64,000 nucleotides of DNA from Oscillospiraceae bacterium (GTDB lineage Bacteria; Bacillota; Clostridia; Oscillospirales; CAG-272): assembly GCA_015064555.1 (NCBI GenBank), contig SVRZ01000005.1:17619-81618 (forward strand). The letters are read 5' to 3'. The translations under genes were made by a program, and so were the position numbers. The notes under the pieces are model-generated. The model ran no database searches and was not told the DNA's origin. It was given only the letters and a program-made list of their open reading frames with translations. This document shows positions 5,850 through 54,904 of the stretch, one piece after another; the stretch's first letter is position 1; every line of letters starts with the position of its first letter.

Positions 5850-5981
5850 TTATCCAAGGTCAAGATCCCAGATTCCGTCACTTTCCTCCTTGGGAGTCGT
5901 TTCGGTTCCGGGAGAGGAGGTTATGATATCCTCTGCCGAAAGCTCGATCACTTCAAGCTCGGGGGTATGATACTTTTTCAT
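5850..5981 (-). CDS. small acidic peptide A, 43 aa (MKKYHTPELEVIELSAEDIITSSPGTETTPKEESDGIWDLDLG), unknown function
   Basis: Below the ORF-track cutoff. ATG at 5981 has AAAGGAGA 10 nt upstream, beginning just after the TAA of the 2217-aa gene. A paralog lies at 35994..36122. The N-terminal halves differ mainly at third codon positions or by conservative changes, which is a coding-type pattern. Confidence 0.65.
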   Translation of the reverse strand: MKKYHTPELEVIELSAEDIITSSPGTETTPKEESDGIWDLDLG

Positions 5982-5999
5982 TTTTCATAATCTCCTTTC

Positions 6000-8900
6000 T
6001 TACTTGGCAACAGACTCTCTGTAAGCCTTCGCACTCTCGCAATACTTAGCGAAGCGTGAAACAAGCTTTGTGAGAGCATCGTTATTCTGTGTCGCTGCCC
6101 ATTCGTAATAACATCTGATATGGCAGGAATCGCTCTCACCGTTTACGGTGTAATCAACCGTTTCGGCAAGCTCGTATGCATAGAGCTTAACCTCGAGGTG
6201 TCTGCCGTTCTTATCGCTGCCTTCGGTTGCCGCAACCGCACTACCCTTTATCGAGAATGCGAAATCGGATGCATTATATCCGTCTGCAAGATAGAAGCGA
6301 AGAGCGGGGGTTGCATCGAGGTTATAGGTGACCGCAGTGATGCCGAGCGTGGGCTTTTCGGCACTTCCGCTCATCACGGGTATGCTCGTTTCGTCATAAT
6401 TCTCACCGAGAAGCGCGTCTATCTTTGCCATAGCCTCTGCATCCTCTGTGCCGAAGAATGTGTATGCCGCTCTGATATAGGAAAGAACGTCCTTTACAAG
6501 AGTCTTTTCGGTAGCCGAAGCCGAAGTATCGGAAAGAAGCTTTTCCGCGTACTTGGGAATCGAGAAGGTGAACGTACCTCTCATTACCTTTCCGTCGACG
6601 GTAAGGGTTGCCGTGAGCTTTATCTCTCTTGCCGCTTCTCTTGCACCGAGAGATACGGTTACAAGATAGTAGCCGTCCTTAACGGTAAGAGTCGAGAGGT
6701 CGAGAGCCGCACCGTCAAGGTTAAGAGCGGTGAGATTTGCGTTCATGGGAACGTAGATATTGAATATAAGCTCCGAGCCAAGAGTGATGCTTGACTTGGG
6801 AACGAAGGTCAGAGCCATCTTAGGAGTAAGTCTGTATACGGCTTTACCGTTCGTTGCCGAGGCTTTAACAAATATACACTCGATGCCGTTGGAGGTCTTA
6901 TAGACATTACTTACACCGGGAGCAGTTGCATTTTCGGGGAGGATCAAATCCACTGCATTTTTACCGAAAGCAAGAGTATCCGGAGATCCCTCTCCTTCAA
7001 CGCGCTCGGGACTGAAGGTTGCAAACTCAAAATACTTATCCGCAAATATCTGACCGCCGTTCACGGTAACGTTCACATCAAATTTATTACTGCTGCCGCC
7101 GTCTGCCATACCGAATAGATTTGTGATACTCGCACCCGTCGCATCAAAGGTACAGTCATTGAATACCATATTATACTTAGCGCCGTACGTTCCGTCGCTG
7201 AATGCAACCATAACAAGGCTTCCGCTATGATTGCTCGCGGCGGTGAAGGTTACACTGTCAAACGTTACGTTGAATTCCGCTCCAACGTTCTGCTTATTGT
7301 TGCTGTTAAAGCTGATAGGCGGATTAACCGAATGAGTAGTGTTAAGAGTTCCGTTTTTAACGGTTATATTGGCTGTAAATTCCTTATTATCTCTGCCGGA
7401 AAGATTAAAGAGATGATAGCTTCCTCTTGTAAGCGTATTTCCGTTCAGATCGATCGTAATATACTTCACGGTATAAAGATTCGCCGAGCTTGCGGTAGAG
7501 ATATGATCATCGCGAACGAGAAGCACCGTATTCTTCGATTCACTCGTATCGACCTTTCCGATTGCCTGACAGAAATCGTACCAGGTTGCATATGCCGTGT
7601 TGAAGATTCCGTTTTGGAAGAGCGCAAAGGGATATTTTGTAATATCAGCATACAGGAACGGAATTTCTCCGTATGCTGTAACAACGCTTTCTCCCAGTTC
7701 ATAAACAGCAGTTGTTCCGTCTGTTGAGATCAGCGCATAGCTTATTTTAGCATTACTGTTATAAACGTTTGTCGGTGCCGAGAGCGATGCGGGCATTTCA
7801 ATCTTGGCATATTTACCGTCTTCATTCTTTTCAAACTTCCACGTATCAGCTTCACCTTCGGCATATCCCGTTTTTCTCGTCATGAGCTTTCCGGTAAAGT
7901 CGGCATCGGATAATATTTCTCCGCCCTTGAAGACAACGTGCATTACGTGAGAATTGTTCGCATCAGCACCGGCAACAATGATATTAAAAGCCGAGGTGTG
8001 TGACGTCAGATCGAGCGTACAATTTTCAAATACGACGTCGGTTACACAAAGACCGGCAGCACTATCACCGGCTTCTATTATAGACCAGGTCGTCTTGTGA
8101 GTTATATTAACGTTGGTGAACGTTAATTTAAGATCCTGTCTTACCGATGCAGACTGATTAAGCAAGTTTGCAAGCCTGCGTCCCGCTATAACTATATTAC
8201 CGTTCTTTATATTAACGTTTACGGTATTTGCCTTGGATCCATGGTTGAACTGCATAATTTCCCTGTAGGAATACAACGTGTTACCGCAAAAGTCAACGTT
8301 AAGTGTACCCACAAGCTTATTATAAGTATTCGGTGTAGCGGTTGCTCTGTTTTCAAAATCTCTTCTTAAAACTACGGTAACCACGTCGCCGACATTTGTT
8401 GCGAGAGAAATTGCAGTAGGTATAACGCCTTCATTCTTGGAAGTATTCCAATTATCACCGGCACCTACGCATACCCCACCCTTGAAGATAAGGAAAGGAT
8501 ATGCTTCCTTGTCCAGGTACTCGGTAGGTATTTCACCGTATCCGGGAATATAGTTTTCTATAAGCGTATACGTTGCATTCGTTTCATCAGAGGAGAGCTT
8601 CACAAAAGCAACCCCCTCGCTGTTATAGGTCTTCGTGGGTGCTGCAACGCCCGAGGGCATGGTGAACTTGGTATAATTTCCCTCCGAATCGGGCTCAAAC
8701 CTGAAGGTATCTGCCTCGCCGGCAGGATAACCGGAATTCATCGACATCATGCTATCGGCGAAATTAACGTTTGATACAAATTCTCCGCCCTTGAATACCA
8801 CGTGCATCAAATGCGATTTAGAGGTATCATTATGCGATGTTATAAACGTAAAGGCACTTCCGGTATAATTCGTGAGATCAAACTTACAGTTATCAAATAT

Positions 8901-11900
8901 AATATCAGCGGCGCAAAGACCGGAGGTATTATCAACACCCTCCATCAAACTCCAGTTGGATCTGTAATCTATCGTTATGTCACTGAACGTCAGTTTAAGG
9001 TCTTGTCTTACGGTTGAAGACTGGTTCTGCATTGAAAGAAGACGTCTTGCCGTTATCTTTACAGTGCCGTTATAAATATTGATATTGACGGTGTTGGCAA
9101 CTTTATGATTGAACTGTATCAACTCTCTGACAGTAGTTATAGTATGATCGCCGAGATCTACGTTAAGCGTTCCGACAAGCTGATTATATACGTTAAGCGT
9201 GGTTGTCTGCGTGTGATTATAATCTCTTCTGAGAACAACCGTAACGACATCATCCTTGCTTGATGCCAATTCTATAGCATTAGCTATAACACCGTCGTAT
9301 TTACTTGTATTCCAAGCATCTCCCGCGCCTGCAAATTCACCGTTTTTGAATATAAGGAACGGATATGCCTCAGCATCGGAATACGAGTTGGGGATTATGC
9401 CGTATTCGGTTTCCACTCCGTTGGCATTTTTCCAATTACCGTTCTCATAAGTGTAATAAAACCCGTTTTCAACATTATAATACCGTGCACCGGAAACAGA
9501 AGGAACAAAGGTGGGTTTTCCGCTTCCGCTGTACCACACAACGTCAACTTCTGCAGAACGGATTGCTGCTATATTACCGTCTATAGCTGCAGCAGCGGAT
9601 TCGGCATTTTCGATAGTTACGCTCTCAACGTTTTCAACAGCATAAACAGCCGTTTTTCCGTCAACCGTGGTAGTTCCCGAAACGTAACGATATTCGTTTG
9701 TACCGGTATCACCGCCGGCATTGGTTACTGTTACGGAATAAGAATCCTTTATGTAGAGAGTAGATGTTACACCGGCGGTTGCGGCATTTTTGCCCGTAAT
9801 ACCGGCATATACCGATTTGGTGCTTATCCGATCAGGGCCCGCGCTTAAATTATAACATCCCTCTATAAGATAGGGATACTCCACAGCCTCAGTGGAGGCT
9901 ACATATGGGATCCAGGGAGCTCCTCCGAGTATACCTGCCCAATGAGTGTTTTTGGTCAGAGCTGAAACCTCGAAACAGAGATTTCCATCGTTGTAACAGT
10001 TGCTTATGTGAGCATAGCCTGCATAATCACCGCCCCATTTTGTCGTGGGAGATATGATTCCGGCAATTCCGCCATACATACAGGTTTCGGTTGCGCCGTT
10101 GTCACAGAGAGTCATACTGCCCGTGAAAGCACAGTTGCTTACGGTTGAGTTAAGTCCGAAGCTTCCGACGATACCGCCTCCGATACCGTAATCACCGCCA
10201 AACCTTATGCTCGCGGCAGATGTACAAGCATCGATAACCGTATTATGCGCCATACCGCATACAGACCCGAATCTGCCGCCTCTGGAAGCATTATCAAAAT
10301 TCATACCCGAGAGTGGGGAGATATCGTTTAAAACTATCCTTACGGTGTCTTTTATTTCACAGCCGGAAATAATATTGAATGCGGCAAAATTAGCGTCGGT
10401 AACAAGAGGTGAAGCCGCTCTTCCGACAATTCCTCCGGTAAGTCCCGCGCCTACGATCTCAACGTTCTCGATTACTACGTTTTCAACCGTTGCACCGAAT
10501 ATTACGCCAAACAGACCGTATCCGTATTTAACCGACGATTCGTACGCTCTGCCGAACGGATCTATAGTACCGTTCTTTATAGAATATCCGTTTCCGTCAT
10601 AGTGACCGCCGAATGCCGCCATATCGGATTCGCCGCCGAAATAGTAACCGATAGAGAATATGGACTGACCGTTAAGATCAATATCCTGAGTCTGCTCAAA
10701 ATACATTCCGTCAAGCGATGCGGACGTGCTCATTGAGATCTGCTCTGCCATCCAAAGAAGATTTCCGCCGTTTGCGATCTTATAAGGATCGTTTTCGGTT
10801 CCACTGCCCTCCGGAGATATGGAATTACTCATCCATCCGTCATCTTCTTCAATAATAGGAGCATCAGCCGCAAGATCTATAACCTTCGGATTTTTAAGAT
10901 ATACTTTTCTTACTGTTGAATAATACTCTATTGCCAGCTTATTTCCATCCTCCGAGAAGCGGAACATCGCAACCATCGCGGGAGCTGCGGCATCGCGATC
11001 AATACTCTGTGCGTTTACGAGTACCTGAGTTACGGTATTACCGAAATCTCCTTGCCTTTGCGAATAAACTATTTTATCAACATCGACGTGACCCGCGAGC
11101 ATCAGCTTGACATTTGCATGCTTGCTGACAAGGTTTTCCCAAAGGTATACTCCGCTATTTTTAGTACCGCAGTTTATATCACCGCTGTCAAGCGCAGTAC
11201 CGTCGCAATCAAGATATGCGTGTGTGGTAATAATAACGTTATGATCCTTGTGCTCTTCTCTTGCCAGCACCTCGTTTGCCCATGCAAATACGTTAGCATC
11301 GGCATTATAGGCAATATTCATTATAAGATACTTAGCATTACCTACGGCAAACGTGCGCCAGGTATTATTCACGCTGTTGCTCTTATACATTCCGCCGTGA
11401 TTGACAAACTGCGTAGTATATTCCGTATGTGATGCGAAATACGTATCAAAATCCACACCGTTGTCATGGTTTCCGGCAATAAGCGAATACTCAAGCTTTC
11501 CGTCCATAATGGTAATGGCGTGCTTTGCTACGTCCCACTCTGTAAACGTGCCCGAATCATTTCTTTCGTAATGTCCGCCGCCGGGCTCGGATGCATTTTC
11601 GATAAAAGCAAAGCTGCCTGCAGATGCAACGACTCCGCTTTTATCGGTTATATCGCCAAGACCGATAGAATACTTGATATTTTTCTCATCGATATTATCG
11701 ACGATATAATCGTATATGTAAGGAAGATTCTGAGGATAAAATCTTGTTATCTTCTGAGTATCACCTACGACCGCAAATGAATATGACGGAGCAAAGCCGT
11801 AAGACTTGCGCATTTCTTCCATCTCGGATTCGGAGATCCACGTTTTTTCGTAAAGAACGTCATATCCGTTTCCGCTGTCATCGGTTATATTTTTTCCGAT

Positions 11901-12653
11901 ATCGTTTTCATCAACGTCATAATAGAGGATAATATTATCGGTATCGAGATCGGCTTTGGTCATTGACAGGCCCTTCTCGTAATCAGCCAGGATCTCTGAC
12001 TCGGAGCGAACGTCGGAATATACCGCTACATCTCCAAGACCGCCCTTAAAGCATCCGTAATTGAGCTCTCTGTTATCTCCACCGAAAACAAAGCCGTTAG
12101 TGAGAACCTCTTCACTGATAGAGGAATTGAAATATTTACTCTCTTTTACGGCAGATCCGTTTATGTAACACGAAGCGATGCCGGATACATTGTCATAAAC
12201 GAAGGTAACGTACGCCCATTGATCTGTCGGCACTTTGGCATTTTCAAACTTTACATCATAATGAAGCTTGTTCTCGCCTTTATATTTTTTCTGGACGGAT
12301 ATCGTCGGAACTGCGCCTGCACCAATTGTGAAATCTATGCCGGATTCGCTCAGTCTGCCCTCGGTATTACCTATAATTGCACCAACATCCGACGATGCAA
12401 CCGATGAAGGTATATATACCCAAGCGCTGACCGTTTGAGGCATTTTTTCAAGATGCTTTTGTATTACGTAAGTTGCATCAGGATACGCATACTCAACTTT
12501 ATTGATCGTAAGCTTATCGTTCTGAAACTCAAAAGTAAGTCCCGGAATCTTATTATCCGCTGCTGAAGCAAATACAACCACTGCAGAAACGACTACCGCA
12601 GCAAGAAGCAAGGAAATAAGTAATCTTTTGGACTTAAATGCATTCTTTTTCAT
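6000..12653 (-). CDS. giant secreted multidomain protein 1 (2217 aa): signal peptide, LamG-like lectin, metallophosphoesterase, GLUG-like region, 3 tandem beta-helix-like modules, shared C-terminal domain
   Basis: N-terminus MKKNAFKSKRLLISLLLAAVVVSAVVVFASA. Laminin_G_3-like stretch (VSAWVYIP...CYINGSAV). Metallophosphoesterase motifs VVGDTQK, GLGDITD, AGNHDN, TTHAYLD, LAGHVD. GGIVG/GGIAG/NCY motifs typical of GLUG regions. Domain names come from motif recognition only. Confidence 0.9.
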   Translation of the reverse strand: MKKNAFKSKRLLISLLLAAVVVSAVVVFASAADNKIPGLTFEFQNDKLTINKVEYAYPDATYVIQKHLEKMPQTVSAWVYIPSSVASSDVGAIIGNTEGRLSESGIDFTIGAGAVPTISVQKKYKGENKLHYDVKFENAKVPTDQWAYVTFVYDNVSGIASCYINGSAVKESKYFNSSISEEVLTNGFVFGGDNRELNYGCFKGGLGDVAVYSDVRSESEILADYEKGLSMTKADLDTDNIILYYDVDENDIGKNITDDSGNGYDVLYEKTWISESEMEEMRKSYGFAPSYSFAVVGDTQKITRFYPQNLPYIYDYIVDNIDEKNIKYSIGLGDITDKSGVVASAGSFAFIENASEPGGGHYERNDSGTFTEWDVAKHAITIMDGKLEYSLIAGNHDNGVDFDTYFASHTEYTTQFVNHGGMYKSNSVNNTWRTFAVGNAKYLIMNIAYNADANVFAWANEVLAREEHKDHNVIITTHAYLDCDGTALDSGDINCGTKNSGVYLWENLVSKHANVKLMLAGHVDVDKIVYSQRQGDFGNTVTQVLVNAQSIDRDAAAPAMVAMFRFSEDGNKLAIEYYSTVRKVYLKNPKVIDLAADAPIIEEDDGWMSNSISPEGSGTENDPYKIANGGNLLWMAEQISMSTSASLDGMYFEQTQDIDLNGQSIFSIGYYFGGESDMAAFGGHYDGNGYSIKNGTIDPFGRAYESSVKYGYGLFGVIFGATVENVVIENVEIVGAGLTGGIVGRAASPLVTDANFAAFNIISGCEIKDTVRIVLNDISPLSGMNFDNASRGGRFGSVCGMAHNTVIDACTSAASIRFGGDYGIGGGIVGSFGLNSTVSNCAFTGSMTLCDNGATETCMYGGIAGIISPTTKWGGDYAGYAHISNCYNDGNLCFEVSALTKNTHWAGILGGAPWIPYVASTEAVEYPYLIEGCYNLSAGPDRISTKSVYAGITGKNAATAGVTSTLYIKDSYSVTVTNAGGDTGTNEYRYVSGTTTVDGKTAVYAVENVESVTIENAESAAAAIDGNIAAIRSAEVDVVWYSGSGKPTFVPSVSGARYYNVENGFYYTYENGNWKNANGVETEYGIIPNSYSDAEAYPFLIFKNGEFAGAGDAWNTSKYDGVIANAIELASSKDDVVTVVLRRDYNHTQTTTLNVYNQLVGTLNVDLGDHTITTVRELIQFNHKVANTVNINIYNGTVKITARRLLSMQNQSSTVRQDLKLTFSDITIDYRSNWSLMEGVDNTSGLCAADIIFDNCKFDLTNYTGSAFTFITSHNDTSKSHLMHVVFKGGEFVSNVNFADSMMSMNSGYPAGEADTFRFEPDSEGNYTKFTMPSGVAAPTKTYNSEGVAFVKLSSDETNATYTLIENYIPGYGEIPTEYLDKEAYPFLIFKGGVCVGAGDNWNTSKNEGVIPTAISLATNVGDVVTVVLRRDFENRATATPNTYNKLVGTLNVDFCGNTLYSYREIMQFNHGSKANTVNVNIKNGNIVIAGRRLANLLNQSASVRQDLKLTFTNVNITHKTTWSIIEAGDSAAGLCVTDVVFENCTLDLTSHTSAFNIIVAGADANNSHVMHVVFKGGEILSDADFTGKLMTRKTGYAEGEADTWKFEKNEDGKYAKIEMPASLSAPTNVYNSNAKISYALISTDGTTAVYELGESVVTAYGEIPFLYADITKYPFALFQNGIFNTAYATWYDFCQAIGKVDTSESKNTVLLVRDDHISTASSANLYTVKYITIDLNGNTLTRGSYHLFNLSGRDNKEFTANITVKNGTLNTTHSVNPPISFNSNNKQNVGAEFNVTFDSVTFTAASNHSGSLVMVAFSDGTYGAKYNMVFNDCTFDATGASITNLFGMADGGSSNKFDVNVTVNGGQIFADKYFEFATFSPERVEGEGSPDTLAFGKNAVDLILPENATAPGVSNVYKTSNGIECIFVKASATNGKAVYRLTPKMALTFVPKSSITLGSELIFNIYVPMNANLTALNLDGAALDLSTLTVKDGYYLVTVSLGAREAAREIKLTATLTVDGKVMRGTFTFSIPKYAEKLLSDTSASATEKTLVKDVLSYIRAAYTFFGTEDAEAMAKIDALLGENYDETSIPVMSGSAEKPTLGITAVTYNLDATPALRFYLADGYNASDFAFSIKGSAVAATEGSDKNGRHLEVKLYAYELAETVDYTVNGESDSCHIRCYYEWAATQNNDALTKLVSRFAKYCESAKAYRESVAK
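6811..9404 (-). repeat. three tandem ~288-aa protein modules inside giant 1 (each starts YG-x-IP-x-x-Y...YPF-x-x-F)
   Basis: Module starts YGIIPNSYSDAEAYPFLIFKNG (Tyr codon 9404), YGEIPTEYLDKEAYPFLIFKGG (8540) and YGEIPFLYADITKYPFALFQNG (7673), giving periods of 864 and 867 nt. Modules 1 and 2 align along their full length (VVTVVLRRD..., VRQDLKLTF..., HVVFKGGE...). Confidence 0.7.
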
Positions 12654-12754: not shown

Positions 12755-12785
12755 TTATGACAGAATTTAACCTATGAGGTGCTTT

Positions 12786-13583
12786 ATGCAATATTTTGAA
12801 AATATCAGAGAACACAACTCGCTTTTTTCCGTAATCAAGCACACAAAGGAACTAAAAAACGATTTTGCCTGCAAGCTTGAGATTCATATACAACCCACCA
12901 TAGAAATGGTGTACGTATCAGACGGAAGGTTCGACCTTCACATTAACGGAAGAACCGAAACGGTTCGCACCGGAGAAATAGGAATAGTTTTCCCCTTCCA
13001 GCCTCACGGATACGAAAGATACTCGGGAAGCGACTATATCAGATTCGATTTTGAATCCGAGCTTGCTATGGATTTTTTTAATTTAAAGCATAACGTAATA
13101 GGAGAGAAATCGGTATTCGCCGCGAGCGAAGTAACGCAATACATAATAAAAAAGCATTTCACAGAATCAAACAACCTCTCAAAGCTTAATATCCAAAGCC
13201 TTCTTTATTCCGCTTTGGCCGATTTTACCGATCAGATCAAGCTCGTTCCTTTGGGAAAGGATAATAACGTTCTGATAAAAGCCATAACCTACATAAGATC
13301 CAATATGGATAAATCCTTGCAGATGAATGACGTTGCAAAAGCGCTGGGTTATAGCGAAAGCTATTTTTCAAGAGCTTTAAATAAAAACGCCGGCTTTGGC
13401 TTTAACACGCTTCTTGCTATGATAAGAATAGAGAGCGCAAAAAAGTTTCTGCGGGAAACCGACAAAACAATTCTCGAAATAGTCCTTGAATGCGGATTCG
13501 GAAGCGAACGCAGCTTCTATAGGCAGTTCAGAGACATAACCGGAGAAACACCGCTGAAATACAGAAATGATCTTTATCAATGA
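12786..13583 (+). CDS. AraC-family transcriptional regulator with N-terminal cupin-type sensor domain, 265 aa
   Basis: The C-terminus (MNDVAKALGYSESYFSRALNK...ILEIVLECGFGSERSFYRQFRDITGETPLKYR) is a double AraC HTH. The N-terminus (IEMVYVSDGRFDLHINGRTETVRTGEIGIVFPFQPHGY) is cupin-like. ATG at 12786 has GAGGTG upstream. Confidence 0.85.
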   Translation: MQYFENIREHNSLFSVIKHTKELKNDFACKLEIHIQPTIEMVYVSDGRFDLHINGRTETVRTGEIGIVFPFQPHGYERYSGSDYIRFDFESELAMDFFNLKHNVIGEKSVFAASEVTQYIIKKHFTESNNLSKLNIQSLLYSALADFTDQIKLVPLGKDNNVLIKAITYIRSNMDKSLQMNDVAKALGYSESYFSRALNKNAGFGFNTLLAMIRIESAKKFLRETDKTILEIVLECGFGSERSFYRQFRDITGETPLKYRNDLYQ

Positions 13584-13774: not shown

Positions 13775-14587
13775 TCAAAGCCGCTTTCTGTATTTCATTG
13801 GAGATATCCCGTACACCGCCTTGAACGAGCGGCTGTAATATGCGGGATCTGTAAAGCCCACCGATTCGGCAACCTTTTCTATCGAGAGACTGTCATCCGC
13901 AAGAAGCTCGAGCGAGCGCTTTATACGTGTTGAGCGGATATATTCGCCGAGCGTGCAGCCGAAGCCCTCGCGGATGCTTTTATATATTCCGCTCGGTGAC
14001 ATATGAATGCCGCGCGATACCGATTCGACCGTCATCCGCTCGCAAAGATGCTCATCGATATAATCGGCTATAACGGCTGCGCTCTGCTTCGACTTCGACC
14101 TGACCATATTTTCAAACATTATATACTTTGTAAGCATGGTGGCTATGTTGATTACCGACTCTATCATTTCTTCATTATAAAGAGGAAGCGAGCGGTAGCA
14201 CTCATCTATACTCTCCTTATCTATCGAGAAGGCGTATGCGTCATCGCACGGATCCGGGTTCTTTCTTATCTGACCTATCATAAGAATGCCAACCGTTTCA
14301 TTCCTGTGAAGGAGAGGTATCGCTATATCCAGAAGCCCCGCACCGCATATATGGCGCGCTACCTGACCTGTTTCGCGGCACCGCTTTATAAGTGCGCTAT
14401 TCGATTTAGCGCAAACGCGCTTACCCTTCTCTGTGCTTGCCACAAGACTGCAATAGCGGCAAACGCCCGAGCCGCGGAAGGTTATCCGCCTGCCGTCGGT
14501 ATCGTAAAGCGTGATGGATATACCCGTCGCACGGTTAAAATCGTACACGGCATCCTCAAGCTTTTTTAAATCGTATGTATGGAGCAT
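13775..14587 (-). CDS. PocR-sensor-domain AraC-family regulator, 270 aa
   Basis: The N-terminus (FNRATGISITLYD..GR......C..C...........C...........G....H.C.AGL.DIAIPL......VG.LMIGQIR) matches the PocR ligand-binding domain. The C-terminus is an AraC HTH (SVSRGIHMSPSGIYKSI...VAESVGFTDPAYYSRSFKAVYGISPMKYR). ATG at 14587 has GGAGGTGAG upstream. Confidence 0.85.
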   Translation of the reverse strand: MLHTYDLKKLEDAVYDFNRATGISITLYDTDGRRITFRGSGVCRYCSLVASTEKGKRVCAKSNSALIKRCRETGQVARHICGAGLLDIAIPLLHRNETVGILMIGQIRKNPDPCDDAYAFSIDKESIDECYRSLPLYNEEMIESVINIATMLTKYIMFENMVRSKSKQSAAVIADYIDEHLCERMTVESVSRGIHMSPSGIYKSIREGFGCTLGEYIRSTRIKRSLELLADDSLSIEKVAESVGFTDPAYYSRSFKAVYGISPMKYRKRL

Positions 14588-14761
14588 AATTCTCACCTCC
14601 GTTATCATTATAACGGTTTATCAAAATTTGTCAAGGATTTTTCGGGAAAGTGTAAAATAATCCAAAAAATTAACACAATCCTACCTTGTAACAAAAGAGA
14701 CCTTGGTGGTATAATTTGATTGAGCATGGCTCATCCTAAAAAACAAAGCGAGGTTTTTGAT

Positions 14762-30148: not shown

Positions 30149-33100
30149 TTATCCGAGATACTTAGATACCGCGGCACTATAGGCAGCAGCATCGCCGTCC
30201 GACGCCGCACAGATCTCTATATCATAGAGGAATACGTTCATCTGAAGAGCGCCTATATTGAAGCGTGCAAGATTGGGAGTATCAAACTGCTGAACTAGCA
30301 CGCCGTTTATATACCAATATGCCTTGCCTTCATTTACAACTATAGCCCACTCAAGCGTAATACCATTGGTAGCATCGTAGATATTAGCGCAGTCGGCATC
30401 GCTTTGTTGTCCGTTATACATATAGCCTGCGCCAAAGGTACCGTTGCTGTCGCTATCCCAGAGCAGGAATCTGCAGCCACTAGCAAAGCTGAACTGAAGA
30501 TGTCCGTTTGTGCCGAACTTTGTAATGTCAAGCTTACCGCTTACAACATAGTTGTTGGTAAGTGCATTTCCCGATGCATCGGTGTAGGTTCTGCCGCTTG
30601 CGGTTATATCGCCGCCCTGGCCGTATTTCTGTATGCTGAGCGCATTTTCAAGATATCTTGCCGCCTCAACAGAATACAAATCTGCATTCTCCGATTTTAC
30701 AAATATCTCAATATTTGAAACAGTAACGTTCATATTCTGCGCGCCGATATTGAATTTATCAAGAGTGGGAGCCGCAAAGATCTTCATAAGCTCGCCGTTG
30801 ATGTACCAATATGCCTTGCCTTCATTCACAACAACTGCCCACTCAAGGATAAGACCGTTGGTGGTATCATAGGTAGCAATCTTTGCCGTGTTCTCATTGG
30901 TGTGCTTACCGTTTTCCTGATATCCTATTCCTATATCTCCCAAACTATCAGAATCCCAGAGGATAAATCTGTTGCCGCTGCCCACAAGGAACTGAAGGTG
31001 CGCATTGTTCTTCTTGAGCTCGGTAATGTTAAGAATACCTCTTACAACGTAGTTGTTGGTGAGCGCTTTTCCGGAAGCATCGGTGAAGGTCTTTCCGTTG
31101 GCGGTTATATTGGAATTATTATCGTAATGCTGCAGGTCAACGCCAAGAGCAGAATATTTCGCTACCTCGGCGTAATAAGCAGCCTCATCCTCTGCCTTTA
31201 CGTAAATCTCAATATCCGAGAACAGAGCATTCATCTGAACAGCGCCTACGATAAAGTACTCAAGATTCGGAGTCGCAAATCTCTTTTCAAGATTGCCGTT
31301 TATATACCAGTACGCCACACCGCTGTTGACGACCACGGCAAAATCAAGAGTAAGTCCGTTGCTCGCATCATAGAGCGTAATGCCGGATTCGGTATCGCTC
31401 ACGTGAGAGTTATTCTCGGTGTAGCCGGCGCCAAGCTTGCCGTCGTTATTGCTGTCCCAGAGAAGGAACCTGTAGCCCGAGCCAAGCCTGATCTGAATAT
31501 AAGGATTATCCTTGCCGATAGCACTGATATCGAGCTTGCCCTTTATTACGTAATTATCGGTAAGATCATCTCCGCTTGCATCGGTGAAGGTCTTGTTGGT
31601 AACAGATACGCAACCCGAGGTCTCAAGGTTTACAACGTCACCCACATAGCGAGCAGCATGAGCGTTGTATGCCGCCACGTCATCCGGGTCGTCCGACTTC
31701 ACGCTGACCTCTACGTCGTAGACAATGGAGTTCGCGTTTTCACCGCCGATAAGGAAGTATGCGGGGGTGTAGGACTCGAACGTATGCACAAGCTGTCCGT
31801 TGATATACCAATAAGCCTTTCCGCTTTCATCGGTTATAACCGCCCAGTTTATAACAAGGCCGTCATTTCCGTCATAAAGAGTTTTTACCGTATTATCGCT
31901 TGCGCTTCCGTTGCCAAGATATCCTGCGGCGAATTTTCCGTCGCCATTTATATCCCAGAAAACGAATCTGTAGTTCTGATGCATTCTGAAATGAACGTAT
32001 ACGTTAGCGCCCGGAGTATAGTGAGTAATAACGAGTTTTCCGCTCGCTACGAAGGGACCGGTAATATCATTGCCGTTTTTATCCTTGTATTTGATTGCCG
32101 AAAGACCGTTGATGTAAGCCGCATCACTGCGAGTGACGCCTCTCGCCTCGTCCAGGGCAAGCTTCATAAGATCGTATGCAACAAGGCTGGGATGCGAAGC
32201 ATCCGATGAGGGATACATATTCTTATTGATGGTTTCGTTATTGCCGTAGAAGATCGGAGTGGTATCAACGTATACCAGCCAATCGGTGCTCTCAGCGAGT
32301 GCCTTTATTGCCGCATTTACCGCAGGAGCCTTAACGAAGGAGGACTCGTAGCGGTTGGAATTCTCATCATCGGCAGTCTTCTTGGGATCAACGCTGAAGT
32401 AATAGATCTTAGCCTCGGGAAGCCTTGCGTGATATTCATTGAACAATGCAGTCAATCTCGCAACGAACTCATCCACGGTAAGAGAGCCGTGATGCATATC
32501 GTTGTGACCGATATGAACTACTATCTCCTTCGGCTCCATAGGATAAACGATACGCTCGGAGGCTATCTCAAGCTGATGTATCTGAGAGGAGGAGAGTCCC
32601 ATAAGGAATGCCTTTTCTCCTGCGAAGTCCTGATAGAAGTCCTTCCAGAAAGGAGGCGTCTCCATCGTGTAGCCGTCAAAGTAAGAGTCACCGACAAAGA
32701 TCGTTGCACCCTTATTCTCTTCCTTTATTATGTTTTCCTCATAGTACTGAATCTTCGTTTCGGCATTTATATTGCCGTTATAGGTCGATACCTTGACCGT
32801 AGCGGTCGCGGTATGATATTCGGTGGTGGCGGTAACAGTTACGTTCACCGCAGAATTGAATATTCCCTTTGCGAATATCTTGCCGTTCTCAACGAATACG
32901 TTGGGGGTATCGGTTGTGTAGGTAACCGAGCCGTTATACCAGGATTCGCTGAATACAGGGATTATATCCTTGCCGGGATAGTTCGAATATATCTCGGTGG
33001 GTGCGGTGAGCGTCATCGTTCCGTATGCATTGGGATCGGGATCCTTAATGCCGCAGAGCGTGCATTTGCCCATCGCAAATTCGTGCTGACAGCTATCGAT

Positions 33101-35776
33101 ATCATTGACCTTATCTCTGTAATCCGCGGCACTCTCGCAATACCTTGCGAAGCGCTCGACAAGCTTTACAAGGTTATCGTTATTCTGAGTCTTTGCCCAT
33201 TCGTAGTAGCACCTGATATGGCAGGAGTCGGACTCTCCATTCACGGTGTAGTCAACCGTTTCTGCCATTTCGTATGCATAGAGCTTTACCTCAACGTACT
33301 TGCCGTTTTCGTCAATGCCCTCCTCTGCCGAAACCGCACTACCATTTATTGAGAATGCAAAGTCGGATGCCGTAAAGCCGTCTGCCAGATAGAATCTGAG
33401 TGCCGGCTTAGCCGTGAGGTTGTAGGTCACGGACTTGATACCGAGAGTGGGCTTATCTGCACTGCCGTTCATCACGGGAGCACTGCTTTCATCATAATTC
33501 TCACCAAGGAGTGCATCGATCCTCGCCATAGCCTCGGCATCGGTCGTGCCAAAGTATGCGTACGCTGCTCTTATGTAAGAAAGAACGTCCTTGACGAGAG
33601 TTTTTTCGAGATCGGTAAGAAGATTGTCATCATCGACGATCTTCTTTGCATACTTCGGAATCGAGAAGGCGAACGTGCCCTTCATTACCTTGCCGCCAAC
33701 GCTGAGTGTTGCAACAAGCCTGATCTCTCTTGCCGCCTCACTTGCTCCGAGCGGAACGGTAACAAGACAGTAGCCGTCCTTTTCGGTAAGAGCCGAAATA
33801 TCAAGAGCCGCACCGTCAAGGCTGATGGCGGTAAGCTCCGGAATGTTCGGAACGTAGATATTGAATACAAGCTCCGAGCCAAGTATGATGCTTGCCTTGG
33901 GAACAAACGTCGATGCCGCCTTCGGAGCAAGTCCGTAAGTCGCGGTGACTCCGTTATCGGATGACTTTACGAATACGAGCTCTCCGCCGTTTACCTCACT
34001 CACAGCCGGCTTTTTCGCCGAAGGTATCTCGAGGGTGGTATAATTGCCGCCCTCAGGCTTTGTTAAGGTGATCGAGGAGCCGGCATTTGCATTCTCCATC
34101 TCCGCGAAAACGATCTGCGAGCCGGAGGTGATGATCTTACCGCCGCTTATTTTAGCGGTGGTCGTACAATGCGCGTCGGTCATATCAAACATATTGAGAG
34201 TATAGGATATTTTCGAAAGATCGAATACGCAATTGTTGAAGGTGATGTTAAGGAACTGCGTGGGATCTGCCGCCGCGAATGAGTTATAGCAGATGAGGTC
34301 GGTTGTGGTCGCACCTTCCGCGAGGGCGATGGTCACTCCGTCGAAGGTGAAGTTGAAGCCATTGCCTCCGGGATATTTGCCACTGGGATTCCAGCTCGAA
34401 AGCTTCATAAGAGCAGTTGAGCCAAGAACAACCTTACCGTTCTTTACTGTAATATTGGTATCGTAAGCAGTCTTTTTCTGCGCCGAGAACATAATTCTGT
34501 CGGTCGAGGTGAACGTAAAGCCGTTTAAATCGAGTGTAACACCGTATGTCTGGCTTAAGTTATTATACTGACTTTCCGCATAGGTGAAATCGCGGCGCAT
34601 AAGGATAACAGAGCCTGCCGCCTTTGAGCTGTGGAGCGCGCTGGCGGTCGCATCCTTAGCGAACAGCCCATATGCACCCACGAAGCTTCCGTTACGGAAC
34701 ACTGCGAAGGGGTATTTATCAACATCCTTATAGCTGCCGGGAATTACACCGTAAGGAGTTATGATCTCGCTGACGGTAAGCTCATATTTATCGGTCGAGC
34801 CCTCCACCTTGGTGAAGCAGACCCTGCTGCCTCCGTCCTCGGTGAGGAAGGTATCCGTGATAGGCTCATAGTCACCCTTTACGGTGAGAGTGGGAAGGCT
34901 GCCGTCAGAGCCGACACCCACAAGAAGACTCTCGTTGCTGTTGCCGTCATAAAGGGTTATATGAGCAAGATCTGCGGTTATTATCTCTCCGCCGTTGATC
35001 CTGACGTCAACGTTGAGCACGTTGTTTCCGTCTGCCGCGGCAAATACCGTCATATTCTTATCCGTTCTGGTATAGCCCGAGAGATCAATAGTGCAATCAT
35101 TTAACGTAATAACCGTTCGGGTGCCGCACGTGCTTGCATTACCCGTCCAGGTGGTGTGAATAAGGTGTCCCCAGAAATCGCCCGTGGTGCCGGCGCTTTC
35201 CGAAACTCCGATGGTTATACCATCGTAGGTCACGTCGAATTTCTTTTCACCCGCATCGGTGCCTGTAAAGATCTGAGTATCAACAAATGCGATCATACCC
35301 ATAAGCATCTTGCCGTTGGTGATCTTTATCTTTGTGGTATAAGACGCCACAGGATAATCAGCTACAAGATCAAGACCTGTATACTCGTTTGTGAAGGTGT
35401 GACCTCCGAGGTCAATAAGTATATTGGTCGCCGTGTTTATTGATGGCGGAGTGCCGTTATTGTAGTTGGTAAAGTCGCGTCTTAAAAGAAGCTGCGCCTC
35501 GTGCTCGGTATGTTCCTCGCCGCTTACCGCATTCTGGAGAGCATATAATGCATCCTTCCAGGTGGAGTAAGCACCAACGAACCGATTCTCGGAGAATACC
35601 GCAAGCGGGAACGCATCTGCATCGGCATATTCATCACCGATAGTACCGTACGTTGTCACAAGATCTGCATCCGAGTTTCCGCTGTCGCTCGCAAGCACGG
35701 GGATAACACCGCATATGCAAAGCGCAACGAAAAGCAAAAGAAATGTCAGACGTCTGATGATTTTATGCTGGTTCAT
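30149..35776 (-). CDS. giant secreted multidomain protein 2 (1875 aa): signal peptide, 2 beta-helix-like modules, shared ~270-aa domain (internal here), Cys knuckle, Ig-like segment, SGNH/GDSL hydrolase, 4 LamG-like repeats
   Basis: Start MNQHKIIRRLTFLLLFVALCICGVIPVLA at 35776 (AGGAAG upstream); the track start at 35842 is an extension. SGNH blocks FVGDSYFDG, HIGHNDM and SDASHPS. Shared domain FVPKASIILGSELVFNIYVP...RFARYCESAADYR. Confidence 0.9.
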   Translation of the reverse strand: MNQHKIIRRLTFLLLFVALCICGVIPVLASDSGNSDADLVTTYGTIGDEYADADAFPLAVFSENRFVGAYSTWKDALYALQNAVSGEEHTEHEAQLLLRRDFTNYNNGTPPSINTATNILIDLGGHTFTNEYTGLDLVADYPVASYTTKIKITNGKMLMGMIAFVDTQIFTGTDAGEKKFDVTYDGITIGVSESAGTTGDFWGHLIHTTWTGNASTCGTRTVITLNDCTIDLSGYTRTDKNMTVFAAADGNNVLNVDVRINGGEIITADLAHITLYDGNSNESLLVGVGSDGSLPTLTVKGDYEPITDTFLTEDGGSRVCFTKVEGSTDKYELTVSEIITPYGVIPGSYKDVDKYPFAVFRNGSFVGAYGLFAKDATASALHSSKAAGSVILMRRDFTYAESQYNNLSQTYGVTLDLNGFTFTSTDRIMFSAQKKTAYDTNITVKNGKVVLGSTALMKLSSWNPSGKYPGGNGFNFTFDGVTIALAEGATTTDLICYNSFAAADPTQFLNITFNNCVFDLSKISYTLNMFDMTDAHCTTTAKISGGKIITSGSQIVFAEMENANAGSSITLTKPEGGNYTTLEIPSAKKPAVSEVNGGELVFVKSSDNGVTATYGLAPKAASTFVPKASIILGSELVFNIYVPNIPELTAISLDGAALDISALTEKDGYCLVTVPLGASEAAREIRLVATLSVGGKVMKGTFAFSIPKYAKKIVDDDNLLTDLEKTLVKDVLSYIRAAYAYFGTTDAEAMARIDALLGENYDESSAPVMNGSADKPTLGIKSVTYNLTAKPALRFYLADGFTASDFAFSINGSAVSAEEGIDENGKYVEVKLYAYEMAETVDYTVNGESDSCHIRCYYEWAKTQNNDNLVKLVERFARYCESAADYRDKVNDIDSCQHEFAMGKCTLCGIKDPDPNAYGTMTLTAPTEIYSNYPGKDIIPVFSESWYNGSVTYTTDTPNVFVENGKIFAKGIFNSAVNVTVTATTEYHTATATVKVSTYNGNINAETKIQYYEENIIKEENKGATIFVGDSYFDGYTMETPPFWKDFYQDFAGEKAFLMGLSSSQIHQLEIASERIVYPMEPKEIVVHIGHNDMHHGSLTVDEFVARLTALFNEYHARLPEAKIYYFSVDPKKTADDENSNRYESSFVKAPAVNAAIKALAESTDWLVYVDTTPIFYGNNETINKNMYPSSDASHPSLVAYDLMKLALDEARGVTRSDAAYINGLSAIKYKDKNGNDITGPFVASGKLVITHYTPGANVYVHFRMHQNYRFVFWDINGDGKFAAGYLGNGSASDNTVKTLYDGNDGLVINWAVITDESGKAYWYINGQLVHTFESYTPAYFLIGGENANSIVYDVEVSVKSDDPDDVAAYNAHAARYVGDVVNLETSGCVSVTNKTFTDASGDDLTDNYVIKGKLDISAIGKDNPYIQIRLGSGYRFLLWDSNNDGKLGAGYTENNSHVSDTESGITLYDASNGLTLDFAVVVNSGVAYWYINGNLEKRFATPNLEYFIVGAVQMNALFSDIEIYVKAEDEAAYYAEVAKYSALGVDLQHYDNNSNITANGKTFTDASGKALTNNYVVRGILNITELKKNNAHLQFLVGSGNRFILWDSDSLGDIGIGYQENGKHTNENTAKIATYDTTNGLILEWAVVVNEGKAYWYINGELMKIFAAPTLDKFNIGAQNMNVTVSNIEIFVKSENADLYSVEAARYLENALSIQKYGQGGDITASGRTYTDASGNALTNNYVVSGKLDITKFGTNGHLQFSFASGCRFLLWDSDSNGTFGAGYMYNGQQSDADCANIYDATNGITLEWAIVVNEGKAYWYINGVLVQQFDTPNLARFNIGALQMNVFLYDIEICAASDGDAAAYSAAVSKYLG
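30152..32116 (-). repeat. four tandem ~160-170-aa jelly-roll (LamG/ConA-like) repeats at the C-terminus of giant 2
   Basis: The recurrent pattern TFTDASG..LT.NYV..GKL.I........LQF....G.RF.LWDS...G..G.GY.....(E/S)GKAYWYING.L...F..P.L..F.IGA..MN....IEI occurs four times to the stop codon. Confidence 0.75.
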
Positions 35777-35798
35777 TTTTTTCTTCCTTTCACAGATA

Positions 35799-35827
35799 AT
35801 TCTAAAAATCGAAGGGTAAAACCGCAA
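35799..35827 (-). promoter_or_regulatory. possible internal promoter for giant 2
   Basis: On the minus strand: TTGCGG (35827-35822), 17-nt spacer, TAGAAT (35804-35799), about 22 nt upstream of the ATG. Confidence 0.35.
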
Positions 35828-35993
35828 ATTGCGAACTTTCATTTACAAATATGTGGTTTTATTTATCGGTCGGTCGTCATGATCCTCGGGCGCGGAAAGC
35901 TTTCCGCTATCCCCGATTCTTTATTAAGCATTATCCGGCACCGATGCAAACAGATCTTCATCCTGTCGCATCTGATTTTTCGTCGCAACGGGA

Positions 35994-36122
35994 TCAAATA
36001 TCAAGATCCCAGATTCCGTCGCTCTCCTCCTTGGGAGTCGTTTCGGTTCCGGGAGAGGAGGTTATGATATCCTCTGCCGAAAACTTTACAATCTCAATTT
36101 CGGGATCAACGTATTTTTTCAT
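35994..36122 (-). CDS. small acidic peptide B, 42 aa (MKKYVDPEIEIVKFSAEDIITSSPGTETTPKEESDGIWDLDI), paralog of peptide A
   Basis: ATG at 36122 has AAAGGAGA 9 nt upstream and lies 34 nt after the TGA of the 2788-aa gene. Below the ORF-track cutoff. 80/82 nt are identical to peptide A over the 3' half. Confidence 0.65.
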   Translation of the reverse strand: MKKYVDPEIEIVKFSAEDIITSSPGTETTPKEESDGIWDLDI

Positions 36123-36156
36123 CTTGTTTTCTCCTTTCATTTTCCATTGTCAGCTT

Positions 36157-44523: not shown

Positions 44524-44605
44524 TTTTCTCTCTCCTTTTATAATTTTACTTGACTCTAAGTAGAATAAGTTCGTGATATCATTATACACGCGTAAAGAAA
44601 AAAAG

Positions 44606-44637
44606 TATGACAAAAGCACGCATATCTTATGACAAAA
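44606..44637. promoter_or_regulatory. direct repeat TATGACAAAA x2 (22-nt register) in the giant-3/AraC-2 divergent region, candidate AraC-type operator
   Basis: Exact 10-mers at 44606-44615 and 44628-44637, upstream of the giant-3 start on its promoter side. The function is inferred only. Confidence 0.3.
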
Positions 44638-44774
44638 CTTTAGGTGCATACAGTTGTATAGTCAAATAAAACAAAAGGAAATACAGAAAATTGTTGCTTT
44701 TTAACAAAAAGCCGCCTGTTATATTTGATACAGGGATAATTCACCGGGGCGCTCTGAAAAAGTTAAGACAAAAC

Positions 44775-44803
44775 TTGACATATGTTCTTAGCGGTGGTAT
44801 AAT
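44775..44803 (+). promoter_or_regulatory. sigma-A-type promoter of AraC regulator 2
   Basis: TTGACA (44775-44780), 17-nt spacer, TATAAT (44798-44803). Confidence 0.5.
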
Positions 44804-44831
44804 GAAGAAAAAGGCACGAAAGGAGTGTCAT

Positions 44832-45719
44832 ATGCTGCAGATACAGACCTCAAATTGCTTTAGCGAGGGCACACTGCGCTCCACCACGAAAATAGGCAGA
44901 TATGCTATAGGAAATCACATACACCAGAACACCGAGATCGTATTTGTAAAAGAGGGCGAGATAGACGTTACTATAGACGGAAGAAAAGAGAGAGCACGGA
45001 CAAACGACGTTATAATAATAGCCCCATTCTCGGTTCATTCGTTTCACACGGAGAAGTACGTAAACGCCTGGATAAGCGTTTTCTCAAACAATTTCATATC
45101 CGATTTCATAGGTGTTGACGGCTCATATTTCTACGGTGAGCGCGCAGTTTTCACCCCCACGGAGGAGCTTCGCAATTACTTTTGCGGAAGGCTCTTTGAC
45201 ACGGCGGAGGATATAATTGCTCCCGCCGAGGCACAGGTCAGAAAAATAAAGGCCATGCTCTACCCCATATTTGAGGAATACACCGCGTCGGTCCCTCAGA
45301 CACGCACACCCCCGAAAAGCAATGCACTCTCCGCCGCCCTGACGTATATGCAGAAGCATTATAAGGAGAATCTTTCGCTCACCGACGTTGCAAGAAGCTT
45401 AGGATATAATCCCACCTATCTTTCGCACACGCTCGGCGAGCTCGGAGGAATAAATTTCAGAACGCTTCTCAATTCGTTCCGCGTAGAGGAAGCGAAGCAG
45501 ATGCTCCTATCGAAAAAGCACAAGATGATAGATATCGCTATGGAATGCGGCTTCAGCTGTGAGCGCTCGTTTTACCGCGCATTTATGGCAATAACCGGAG
45601 TAACGCCGGGAGAATACGTTGAGTCCCGTCCGGATGCCGAATTTATCACCGTCGGCGGTGATAAGACCGTCTACAATATGGGTGTGCGCCTGCCGATAGA
45701 CGACCTGAACGGTCATTGA
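44832..45719 (+). CDS. AraC-family transcriptional regulator with cupin-type sensor domain, 295 aa (paralog of 12786..13583)
   Basis: ATG at 44832 with AAGGAG 6 nt upstream; the track start at 44691 is an extension. Cupin part HIHQNTEIVFVKEGEIDVTIDGRKERARTNDVIIIAPFSVHSF. C-terminal AraC HTH LTDVARSLGYNPTYLSHTL...IDIAMECGFSCERSFYRAFMAITGVTPGEY. Confidence 0.85.
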   Translation: MLQIQTSNCFSEGTLRSTTKIGRYAIGNHIHQNTEIVFVKEGEIDVTIDGRKERARTNDVIIIAPFSVHSFHTEKYVNAWISVFSNNFISDFIGVDGSYFYGERAVFTPTEELRNYFCGRLFDTAEDIIAPAEAQVRKIKAMLYPIFEEYTASVPQTRTPPKSNALSAALTYMQKHYKENLSLTDVARSLGYNPTYLSHTLGELGGINFRTLLNSFRVEEAKQMLLSKKHKMIDIAMECGFSCERSFYRAFMAITGVTPGEYVESRPDAEFITVGGDKTVYNMGVRLPIDDLNGH

Positions 45720-51594: not shown

Positions 51595-51614
51595 ATCACG
51601 AAAGGCAGTTAAAT

Positions 51615-54866: not shown

Positions 54867-54904
54867 TTTTTAAACAAATATATTAAAAGCAAAAGGAGAA
54901 AAAA

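Follow-up and report, generated by a model that had tools for sequence, protein, structure and literature searches.

A bipartite beta-sandwich domain of giant secreted clostridial proteins and the small peptide gene that usually follows it

A 64-kb stretch of contig SVRZ01000005.1 from an Oscillospiraceae bacterium (hereafter the window, to which all coordinates refer unless another locus is named) contains three giant genes, all on the minus strand, whose products share one domain of about 270 residues. In two of the three, the giant is followed directly by a gene for a peptide of 42 or 43 residues. Giant 1 (6000-12653) encodes 2217 aa, giant 2 (30149-35842) encodes 1897 aa, or 1875 aa from the start codon used by NCBI, and giant 3 (36157-44649) encodes 2830 aa. 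All three are deposited as “hypothetical protein” (locus tags E7617_; giant 1 is MBE6634868.1). We number the copies of the shared domain 1, 2 and 3 after the giants that carry them.

Giant 1 starts with a signal peptide and an N-terminal part that is LamG-like and metallophosphatase-like, continues with three all-beta repeat modules of ~285 aa and ends in the shared domain as its C-terminal domain (CTD). A relative at another locus, L011, has the same architecture and matches Laminin_G_3 and Metallophos of Pfam. Giant 3 consists of a signal peptide, an esterase-like region, Big_5, four repeat modules and the CTD. In giant 2, the signal peptide and two repeat modules are followed by the shared domain, a Cys knuckle, an immunoglobulin (Ig)-like stretch, a GDSL/SGNH domain (Pfam, 4.5e-11) and four terminal repeats. 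A preliminary description of this DNA, made from its letters alone, had given giant 2 a tail of SGNH and LamG-like repeats of about 950 residues; the SGNH domain is confirmed, while the part downstream of the shared domain measures 992 residues and its four terminal repeats match nothing in Pfam. That description had also seen no LPXTG, SLH, dockerin or choline-binding signature, and no model for any of the four matches any giant (Pfam, E<=0.1).

Motif search and alignment agree in placing the shared segment in all three giants where the preliminary description had put it. Copy 1 (6003-6830; aa 1942-2217 of giant 1) has its motif core at 6030-6806 (aa 1950-2208), copy 2 (33098-33931, internal in giant 2) at 33128-33907 (aa 646-905), and copy 3 (36160-36996, at the end of giant 3) at 36196-36972 (aa 2560-2818). 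The segment is 259-276 aa long across the three giants, and the two other copies are 75% and 66% identical to copy 1, with a mean column identity of 83% in a three-way alignment of ~276 columns. Comparison of the copies by tblastn gives E values of 1e-138 and 3e-121, far beyond chance, whereas the other parts of the three giants differ. The stop codon follows the final “YR” of the domain after 5 residues in giant 1 and after 8 in giant 3, within the limit of about 10 that had been claimed, and the open reading frames (ORFs) confirm that a peptide gene comes next in both cases.

Peptide gene 1 (5850-5981, minus strand; 43 aa, MKKYHTPELEVIELSAEDIITSSPGTETTPKEESDGIWDLDLG) has its ATG 18 nt past the stop of giant 1, and peptide gene 2 (35994-36122, minus strand; 42 aa, MKKYVDPEIEIVKFSAEDIITSSPGTETTPKEESDGIWDLDI) has its ATG 34 nt past the stop of giant 3. 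Each is preceded by a Shine-Dalgarno motif AAGGAG of its own, read from the sequence, at 5992-5997 (10 nt before the ATG) and at 36131-36136 (8 nt before the ATG at 36122), both on the minus strand, and neither window cassette has a terminator between giant and peptide gene. The two peptides are 81% identical to one another, and public data hold a protein that is 100% identical to peptide 1 (P0039). A profile built from five peptides retrieves 815 clusters (90% identity) of 42-50 aa, with no functional annotation among those listed, and follows the consensus MKKYxxPELEIIELxxxDIITTSPGTETTPK[DE][DE]xDGIWDLD[LI]G. The peptides are acidic (isoelectric point, pI, ~4.1), usually lack Cys and show neither a signal peptide nor a hydrophobic segment; scans of six of them against Pfam and NCBIfam gave nothing above noise. 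Between loci, the proportion of synonymous differences (pS) is 0.35-0.9, near saturation, and that of nonsynonymous differences (pN) is 0.05-0.27, with dN/dS of 0.05-0.3 where dS can be estimated. The peptide gene is therefore protein-coding and under purifying selection.

We note that the last 81 nt of the two window peptide genes (5853-5933 and 35997-36077, minus strand) differ at only 3 positions, all synonymous, while the 5' thirds of the genes differ and the adjacent domains are only 66% identical in protein. Gene conversion and nucleotide-level constraint are both possible causes of these near-identical 3' ends.

The domain itself matches no described family. Searches of Pfam (with isolated domains, E up to 10) and NCBIfam left it unmatched, both as single sequences and across 41 homologues. 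Carbohydrate-binding module (CBM) families have no sequence match to the domain or to these homologues either, and profile searches against PDB sequences returned only noise (E>=0.29). By these sequence searches, it is a discrete shared module that matches neither an enzyme family nor a known carbohydrate-binding family, in agreement with the earlier suggestion.

Structure prediction, which had been proposed as a check, yielded a compact and confident AlphaFold2 model of copy 1 from a 41-row alignment, with a predicted local distance difference test score (pLDDT) of 93.1 and a predicted template modelling score (pTM) of 0.88. In the model, the first half has eight strands in a beta-sandwich (residues 12-89) and then three helices (91-141), and the second half has another sandwich of eight strands (164-236) and then two helices (238-275). 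The two halves align with each other by hhalign over 101 collinear columns (E=1.9e-4, probability 48%), so that the domain is probably an internal duplication: a tandem repeat of an Ig-like beta-sandwich plus helices, packed as a single unit. The fold is unchanged when the domain is modelled together with the preceding repeat module (pLDDT 87.6). On the strength of these models, the domain is predicted to fold autonomously, and it was previously unclassified.

Foldseek comparison with the PDB ranks the NEAT-linker-NEAT region of IsdH/IsdB and the Ig-helix-Ig unit of myomesin highest (E~2e-4, probability 0.94-0.99), with template modelling (TM) scores of only 0.18-0.24, root-mean-square deviations (rmsd) of 18-22 Å and 10-14% identity. 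Given these low TM scores, only the order of elements, beta-sandwich, helical segment, beta-sandwich, is common to the domain and its matches. Unlike the NEAT proteins (TM 0.18-0.22, rmsd ~19-22 Å), the domain has no NEAT match in Pfam and possesses a second helical segment that closes the unit. A viral structure library gave generic Ig matches. Taken singly, the sandwiches locally match BhCBM56 and the beta-glucan-binding N-domain of GNBP3 (probability 0.94-0.99, TM 0.45-0.53, E~0.25). The domain is acidic (pI 4.4-5.0), and polar and aromatic residues conserved in the family lie on its helices (E108, D114, Y118, Y263, S266 and Y270), which suggests that the helices form a functional surface and not a spacer.

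The repeat modules that precede the domain are a separate observation. All-beta modules of ~280-320 aa occur in giants 1, 2 and 3 in 3, 2 and 4 copies (6834-9413, 33935-35671 and 37000-40716, minus strand). They start with “YGxIPxxYxDxxxYPF..F” and contain “DLxGxT”, “V.NG” and “FxNCxFD”. Pfam does not match them, and the AlphaFold model in which one precedes the domain has no convincing PDB fold match, so that they too form an unclassified type of module.

The domain belongs to a large family. A word-indexed search found 38 homologues, mostly fragments. When 1.84 billion representatives were searched exhaustively with a hidden Markov model (HMM), 2,593 of them scored E<=1e-3, among which 935 reached <=1e-10 and 372 reached <=1e-30. 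Among the 150 best representatives, the domain ends no more than 10 residues from the C-terminus in 126 (median protein length 1,561 aa) and is internal in 24 (16%). Of the full-length-looking representatives, 99 of 121 carry signal-peptide-like N-termini and none an LPXTG motif with hydrophobic tail (0/121). Anchoring and assembly models (SLH, CWB2, choline-binding, LysM, WxL, dockerin) likewise found no match in the three giants (Pfam, E<=0.1), in the isolated domains (E<=10) or in sets of 41 and 36 homologues, and NCBIfam gave none either. The cargo fused to the domain is diverse: among 36 members we find Metallophos (8), Laminin_G_3 (5), F5/8 type C (5), SASA (5) and GDSL (3), together with GH32, alpha-L-fucosidase, GDPD and 3-keto-disaccharide hydrolase. 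The domain is therefore a single conserved tag carried by a wide range of exo-enzymes, esterases, phosphoesterases and glycosidases among them. Related loci were found in metagenomes of ruminant and other guts and in metagenome-assembled genomes (MAGs) labelled “Clostridia bacterium”, and tblastn against phage and plasmid collections gave no match. We conclude that a large family of multi-domain exo-enzymes with Sec signals, from uncultured Oscillospiraceae-like Clostridia of gut and rumen, has the domain in common as a mostly C-terminal module. Neither this family nor that of the peptide was found in Pfam, NCBIfam, the PDB or the searchable literature, and literature searches on the peptide motifs and on small ORFs after giant surface proteins retrieved nothing relevant.

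Where the domain is internal, the protein continues either, as in giant 2, with a Cys knuckle/Ig/SGNH tail or with a ~420-aa tail that begins “NYVDENGN...GYYTRDLY”. The Cys knuckle (SCQHEFAMGKCTLCG; pattern CxHx(6)CxxCG) lies directly after the domain in giant 2 (~33050-33095, aa 916-930) and is found after the internal domain in P0007, in L010 and in 2 of 23 internal representatives checked (P0181, P0236). After the knuckle come “GTMTLTAPxxIYSNYPGKD”, the Ig-like stretch and SGNH, in this order; the knuckle may be a small zinc-binding linker.

The association of domain and peptide is reproduced outside the window. We examined the linkage in both directions, in loci picked by the domain alone and in loci picked by the peptide. 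Among full C-terminal copies of the domain, 12 of 14 have a peptide gene next, the two window copies included, with 13-38 nt between stop and peptide. The domain-picked loci include the sole locus found in a GTDB genome (L004, a goat-colon MAG), where the peptide gene lies 20 nt past the stop of a gene for an 1101-aa protein with discoidin-like repeats; only the signal peptide and the domain are common to this protein and the window giants. Peptide genes are present in domain-picked L005 and L009 as well, and in all six of the short metagenome loci found by domain patterns only. In the reverse direction, the gene directly upstream of the peptide encodes the domain in all nine distinct peptide-picked cassette types with upstream sequence (L010, L011, two in L012, L013, L021, L031, L036 and L037), which differ in cargo.

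A peptide gene is present even at L043, which has the greatest divergence among the copies examined (33% identity): a 42-aa ORF (1709-1837 of that locus) lies 13 nt past the stop, and in it the N-terminal half of the peptide is conserved (MKNYISPDFEIITVAACDVITTS), whereas the C-terminal half is unrelated and ends in ...GYGQYGW. Read-through or frameshift fusion of giant and peptide was considered and rejected, because the reading frames are not the same from locus to locus and a separate Shine-Dalgarno motif precedes each peptide. The domain-peptide cassette is thus real, novel and reproducible in other genomes and metagenomes. In the closer relatives of the domain it appears, from gene layout, to be fixed and bicistronic, with an acidic peptide of 42-46 residues. 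The preliminary description had named two findings that would speak against its reading, membership of a known enzymatic or carbohydrate-binding family and absence of the association elsewhere; neither was found. Its interpretation is supported in part, namely for the link between domain and peptide, while anchoring is a candidate role.

The locus L010 (GCA_054292785.1, JAZPKZ010000094.1, 1-10132) is syntenic with the window (GH2, FeoB, DUF4430, DUF5107) and encodes one 3434-aa protein with a giant-3-like front, a single copy of the domain and a giant-2-like SGNH tail, then the peptide; in the window, the order over 30149-44649 is giant 3, peptide, giant 2. This comparison suggests that recombination within the shared domain may reshuffle the cargo. 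At L005 (1227-1889; also L006-L008), a complete domain and peptide cassette is followed ~200 nt later by a 5'-truncated domain copy of 220 aa, whose start falls within the first sandwich. A terminator-like hairpin and no peptide gene come after this copy, which is probably a recombination remnant.

One might ask whether the similarity is a mere trace of recent duplication or recombination among three paralogues, with no modular meaning. The recombination at the domain seen between L010 and the window, and the near-identical DNA of the 3' two-thirds of the two peptide genes, would agree with such an origin. In contrast, the thousands of homologues at 30-75% identity, attached to unrelated cargo in many samples, refute it, and the compact, confident fold also argues against it. 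We regard this explanation as having practically no chance of being correct.

The genes that flank the cassettes show a further regularity. An AraC-family regulator with cupin and HTH_18 domains is divergent from giant 1 (12774-13583, plus strand), another from giant 3 (44691-45719, plus strand), and a second, PocR-type AraC regulator lies at 13775-14608 on the minus strand. Wherever the 5' flank of a giant is visible, an AraC-family regulator adjoins it, mostly divergently, including in L004 (2695-3597, minus strand), L011, L012, L031 and L037. Most of these regulators combine a cupin or AraC ligand-binding domain with HTH_18; the one upstream of the first L012 giant does not. Because every domain-bearing giant whose 5' side can be seen has such a neighbour, the recurring unit is regulator, giant and peptide.

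This arrangement raises the idea that the peptide is a regulatory read-out of a fully transcribed and translated giant mRNA of 2,000-2,800 codons, acting on the adjacent AraC protein or on another sensor, with only an indirect link to the domain. The constant presence of the regulator fits this idea, but an AraC gene also adjoins a domain gene that lacks the peptide (L003), and the idea fails to explain why the peptide tracks the domain and not giants as such. In fact, the window encodes two secreted-looking proteins of 305 and 1278 aa with Big_2 repeats and a weak match to a pectate-lyase-like adhesive domain (53949-58741, plus strand), after an ABC transporter (51591-53938), and these have neither shared domain nor peptide; the larger is encoded at 54905-58741. 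The peptide is consequently not a general companion of large surface proteins here. We know of no precedent for peptide-sensing cupin-AraC proteins, and consider a read-out function very improbable.

Two other neighbours occur at single loci. A 284-aa radical-SAM/SPASM protein is encoded two genes upstream of the cassette in L011 (3229-4083) and is seen neither in the window nor at the other loci. In L004, the gene for a TIR-domain protein (8078-8920; Pfam TIR_2, 2.8e-15), ~900 nt downstream from the cassette, probably belongs to defence and has no relation to the cassette.

Careful inspection of the peptide reveals a resemblance to the precursors of peptides that are ribosomally synthesized and modified post-translationally (RiPPs). 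All 95 of the 95 close family members of 43 aa show the pattern Y4-x-x-P7-x-[L/I/F/M]9, which equals the leader motif [Y/W]xxPx[L/V/I/F/A] that is bound by RiPP recognition elements (RREs) in lasso peptides and linear polyphosphorylated peptides (PMC13381572). Like RiPP precursors, the peptide has no signal peptide and combines this invariant motif with a conserved N-terminal half and a C-terminal half that changes in distant relatives, which in L043 gives the classic pattern of leader and core. A rival explanation treats the peptide as an independent precursor, RiPP-like or signalling, that merely shares the operon. Its conserved leader would be recognized by machinery for maturation and export elsewhere in the genome, and the domain would be a CBM-like or structural part of the enzymes that makes no contact with the peptide. 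The carbohydrate-active cargo and the local likeness of the single sandwiches to CBM56 and GNBP3 (E~0.25) would suit such a domain, and a weak NCBIfam match to the leader of the lasso peptide paeninodin (NF033524 lasso_PadeA_fam, E=0.1) would suit such a peptide.

Other observations point away from this explanation. The lasso match scores 12.4 bits against a cut-off of 27 and covers the leader part only. Unlike at RiPP loci, no RRE, protease, cyclase, kinase or exporter is adjacent to the peptide in the window or annotated in the related loci. Specifically, the 64-kb window contains no RRE/PqqD, lasso cyclase, B2 protease, LanM, YcaO or peptidase-containing ATP-binding cassette transporter (PCAT), and the called genes at peptide-picked loci include no maturation gene, the radical-SAM/SPASM gene of L011 being the only one of its kind. 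Genes of the linear polyphosphorylated peptide type (SpI, kinase, NTP transferase) and RRE, peptidase or cyclase genes are likewise absent from the window and from the peptide-picked neighbour tables.

The lasso rules, taken from PMC10368454 and from general knowledge of the class, place Thr at leader position -2, G, A, S or C at core residue 1 and D or E at core positions 7-9. A core that starts at the invariant G25 has E32 and E33 at positions 8 and 9, but Ser23 at -2, and a core that starts after T21-S22 lacks D or E at positions 7-9. What led to the rejection of a RiPP cluster, whether canonical lasso or other, was the absence of maturation genes from the window and from the called genes at these loci. 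A double-glycine/PCAT leader, which has GG, GA or GS at -2/-1 and hydrophobic residues at -4, -7, -12 and -15, was rejected too: a cut after S-P-G25 leaves hydrophobic residues at -7, -12 and -15, with Pro at -2 and Thr at -4, and the sole ABC transporter in the window (51591-53938) lacks a C39 peptidase domain. Within the close family, moreover, conservation is higher in the supposed core than in the leader, an unusual situation for RiPPs, and among cargo types that are otherwise unrelated, the domain-bearing gene alone is a constant neighbour of the peptide. The peptide thus resembles an RRE-type leader peptide and falls outside every known RiPP class. We regard an independent RiPP-like precursor as rather unlikely.

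Functionally, the pair comes closest to C-terminal address modules shared by many proteins (dockerin/X-Doc, SLH and a secretion tag of Bacteroidota), to secreted proteins with a small partner encoded downstream and to the recognition of RiPP leaders by their receptors, but it is a member of none of these systems. Similar to the dockerin and X-module-dockerin of the cohesin-dockerin system (Clostridia, Ruminococcus), it is a conserved, mostly C-terminal, non-catalytic module on many secreted carbohydrate-active enzymes with a presumed docking role, and its Ig-like sandwich plus helices loosely recall X-Doc. Unlike a dockerin, it is about four times larger, matches neither dockerin nor cohesin and lacks duplicated calcium-binding loops, and its candidate ligand is a free 43-aa peptide from the same operon and not a cohesin on a scaffoldin. 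The CTD of the type IX secretion system (T9SS) of Bacteroidota is likewise a conserved beta-sandwich address tag at the C-terminus of many large secreted enzymes; that tag, however, is a single sandwich of ~80-100 aa removed by the sortase-like PorU in diderm hosts, whereas the present domain has 270 aa in two parts, a monoderm clostridial host, no homology to it and a peptide encoded in trans.

Staphopain-staphostatin, SPN-IFS, SpeB-Spi and phage tail fibres with their chaperones all resemble the cassette in having a small, acidic, signal-less partner immediately downstream that pairs with a C-terminal part. In contrast to the 43-aa peptide and the non-enzymatic domain described here, with which they share no homology, they have folded proteins of 80-200 aa as partners, and enzymes or trimeric fibre tips as targets. 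We also rejected a polymorphic toxin/immunity pair. Only the downstream position of the small gene fits: the C-terminal domain is conserved and the N-terminal cargo varies, which is the reversed polarity, and the fold is not toxin-like. Of the defining features of the compared systems that can be assessed here, the leader motif of the peptide is the only one present. By analogy, the domain may be seen as an address module without catalytic function on secreted enzymes, and its peptide partner, encoded in trans, as one without precedent.

From the domain, its family and position, the cassette and the selection on the peptide, we infer a possible physical interaction: the domain would be a docking or address module and the peptide its candidate ligand. 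This tentative proposal, in which our confidence falls short of even, would explain four facts: no partner of the peptide other than the domain is constant when the cargo is unrelated; in distant relatives it is the N-terminal half of the peptide that is kept; both are probably made from one transcript; and the domain helices carry conserved polar residues. In the proposed mechanism, the conserved and strand-prone N-terminal half of the peptide (MKKYxxPELEIIEL...DIITTS) would dock by strand addition against the conserved helices of the domain and leave the peptide's more variable C-terminal half (GTETTPK..DGIWDLD) exposed. Such a complex might then determine what becomes of the newly made enzyme, which could be kept at the cell surface or be assembled with another partner. 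Retention is suggested by the position of the module where anchors usually sit, on enzymes that carry no other anchor, and we consider it rather unlikely as a specific role.

Several observations weigh against docking and retention. Giant 2 has no peptide gene downstream, as the preliminary description had noted, and the same holds for the C-terminal domain copies of L003 and L044 (~40% identity). In L010 the domain is internal, yet a peptide gene follows the whole gene, with ~665 residues translated between the two. The idea that homologues are always terminal and always followed by a small ORF thus proved right for the majority (126 of 150 and 12 of 14) and wrong as a rule, given these loci and the 16% of internal copies; the peptide tracks domain-containing genes, usually but not necessarily with the domain at the very end. 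A natural fusion of domain and peptide was not found: a chimeric profile of the last 80 aa of the domain plus the peptide reached a query coverage of 66% at best. Furthermore, the giants are Sec substrates and the peptide bears no signal; Sec does not admit a non-covalent complex, and no exporter for the peptide is encoded in the 64-kb window. Both partners are acidic, and the domain has no fold or sequence relation to known wall-binding modules, which, unlike it, are typically basic.

The lack of a signal peptide would be accounted for if the peptide were a dedicated cytoplasmic chaperone or inhibitor of the last-translated CTD, supplied by coupled translation, that keeps the domain export-competent or masks it and itself stays behind, in the manner of the staphostatin, Spi and IFS inhibitors and of the phage tail-fibre chaperones, whose genes lie directly downstream of the fibre gene. 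The short gap of 13-38 nt together with the Shine-Dalgarno motif implies co-transcription and near-stoichiometric synthesis, and strict pairing with the last-translated domain would explain the C-terminal preference. However, the Ig-like and helical domain shows no sign of a harmful or enzymatic activity, and the peptide-less copies in giant 2, L003 and L044 and the residues that intervene in L010 speak against such a pairing, as does the absence of phage and plasmid homologues. To our knowledge, there are no dedicated Sec chaperones of 43 aa. A chaperone or inhibitor role is, in our judgement, improbable.

Returning to the docking proposal, its furthest-reaching form would be a new two-component system in which a RiPP-type YxxPxL peptide is bound by an Ig-like/helical receptor domain, and not by a PqqD-like RRE, and in which the pair tethers, assembles or switches enzymes at the cell surface. 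We offer this form as speculation that is unlikely to hold in full; with the same reserve, such a peptide-dependent display or address system would have no described counterpart.

In sum, the results bear on the Oscillospiraceae of rumen and gut, which are major degraders of fibre and glycans, are mostly uncultured and possess very large exo-enzymes that may lack dockerins, SLH domains and sortase signals. The family described here comprises 2,593 representative clusters at E<=1e-3, which are unannotated, those seen being labelled “hypothetical”. That a peptide without a signal and with the look of a leader should be so strictly coupled to the C-terminal domain of giants secreted by Sec would strike a specialist as unexpected. 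If the peptide is a RiPP or a signal, its genes would be unusual precursors welded to exo-enzyme operons, far from maturation genes. If the pair is a docking system, secreted enzymes would be addressed here in a novel manner, and protein engineering might gain a compact pair of peptide and receptor.

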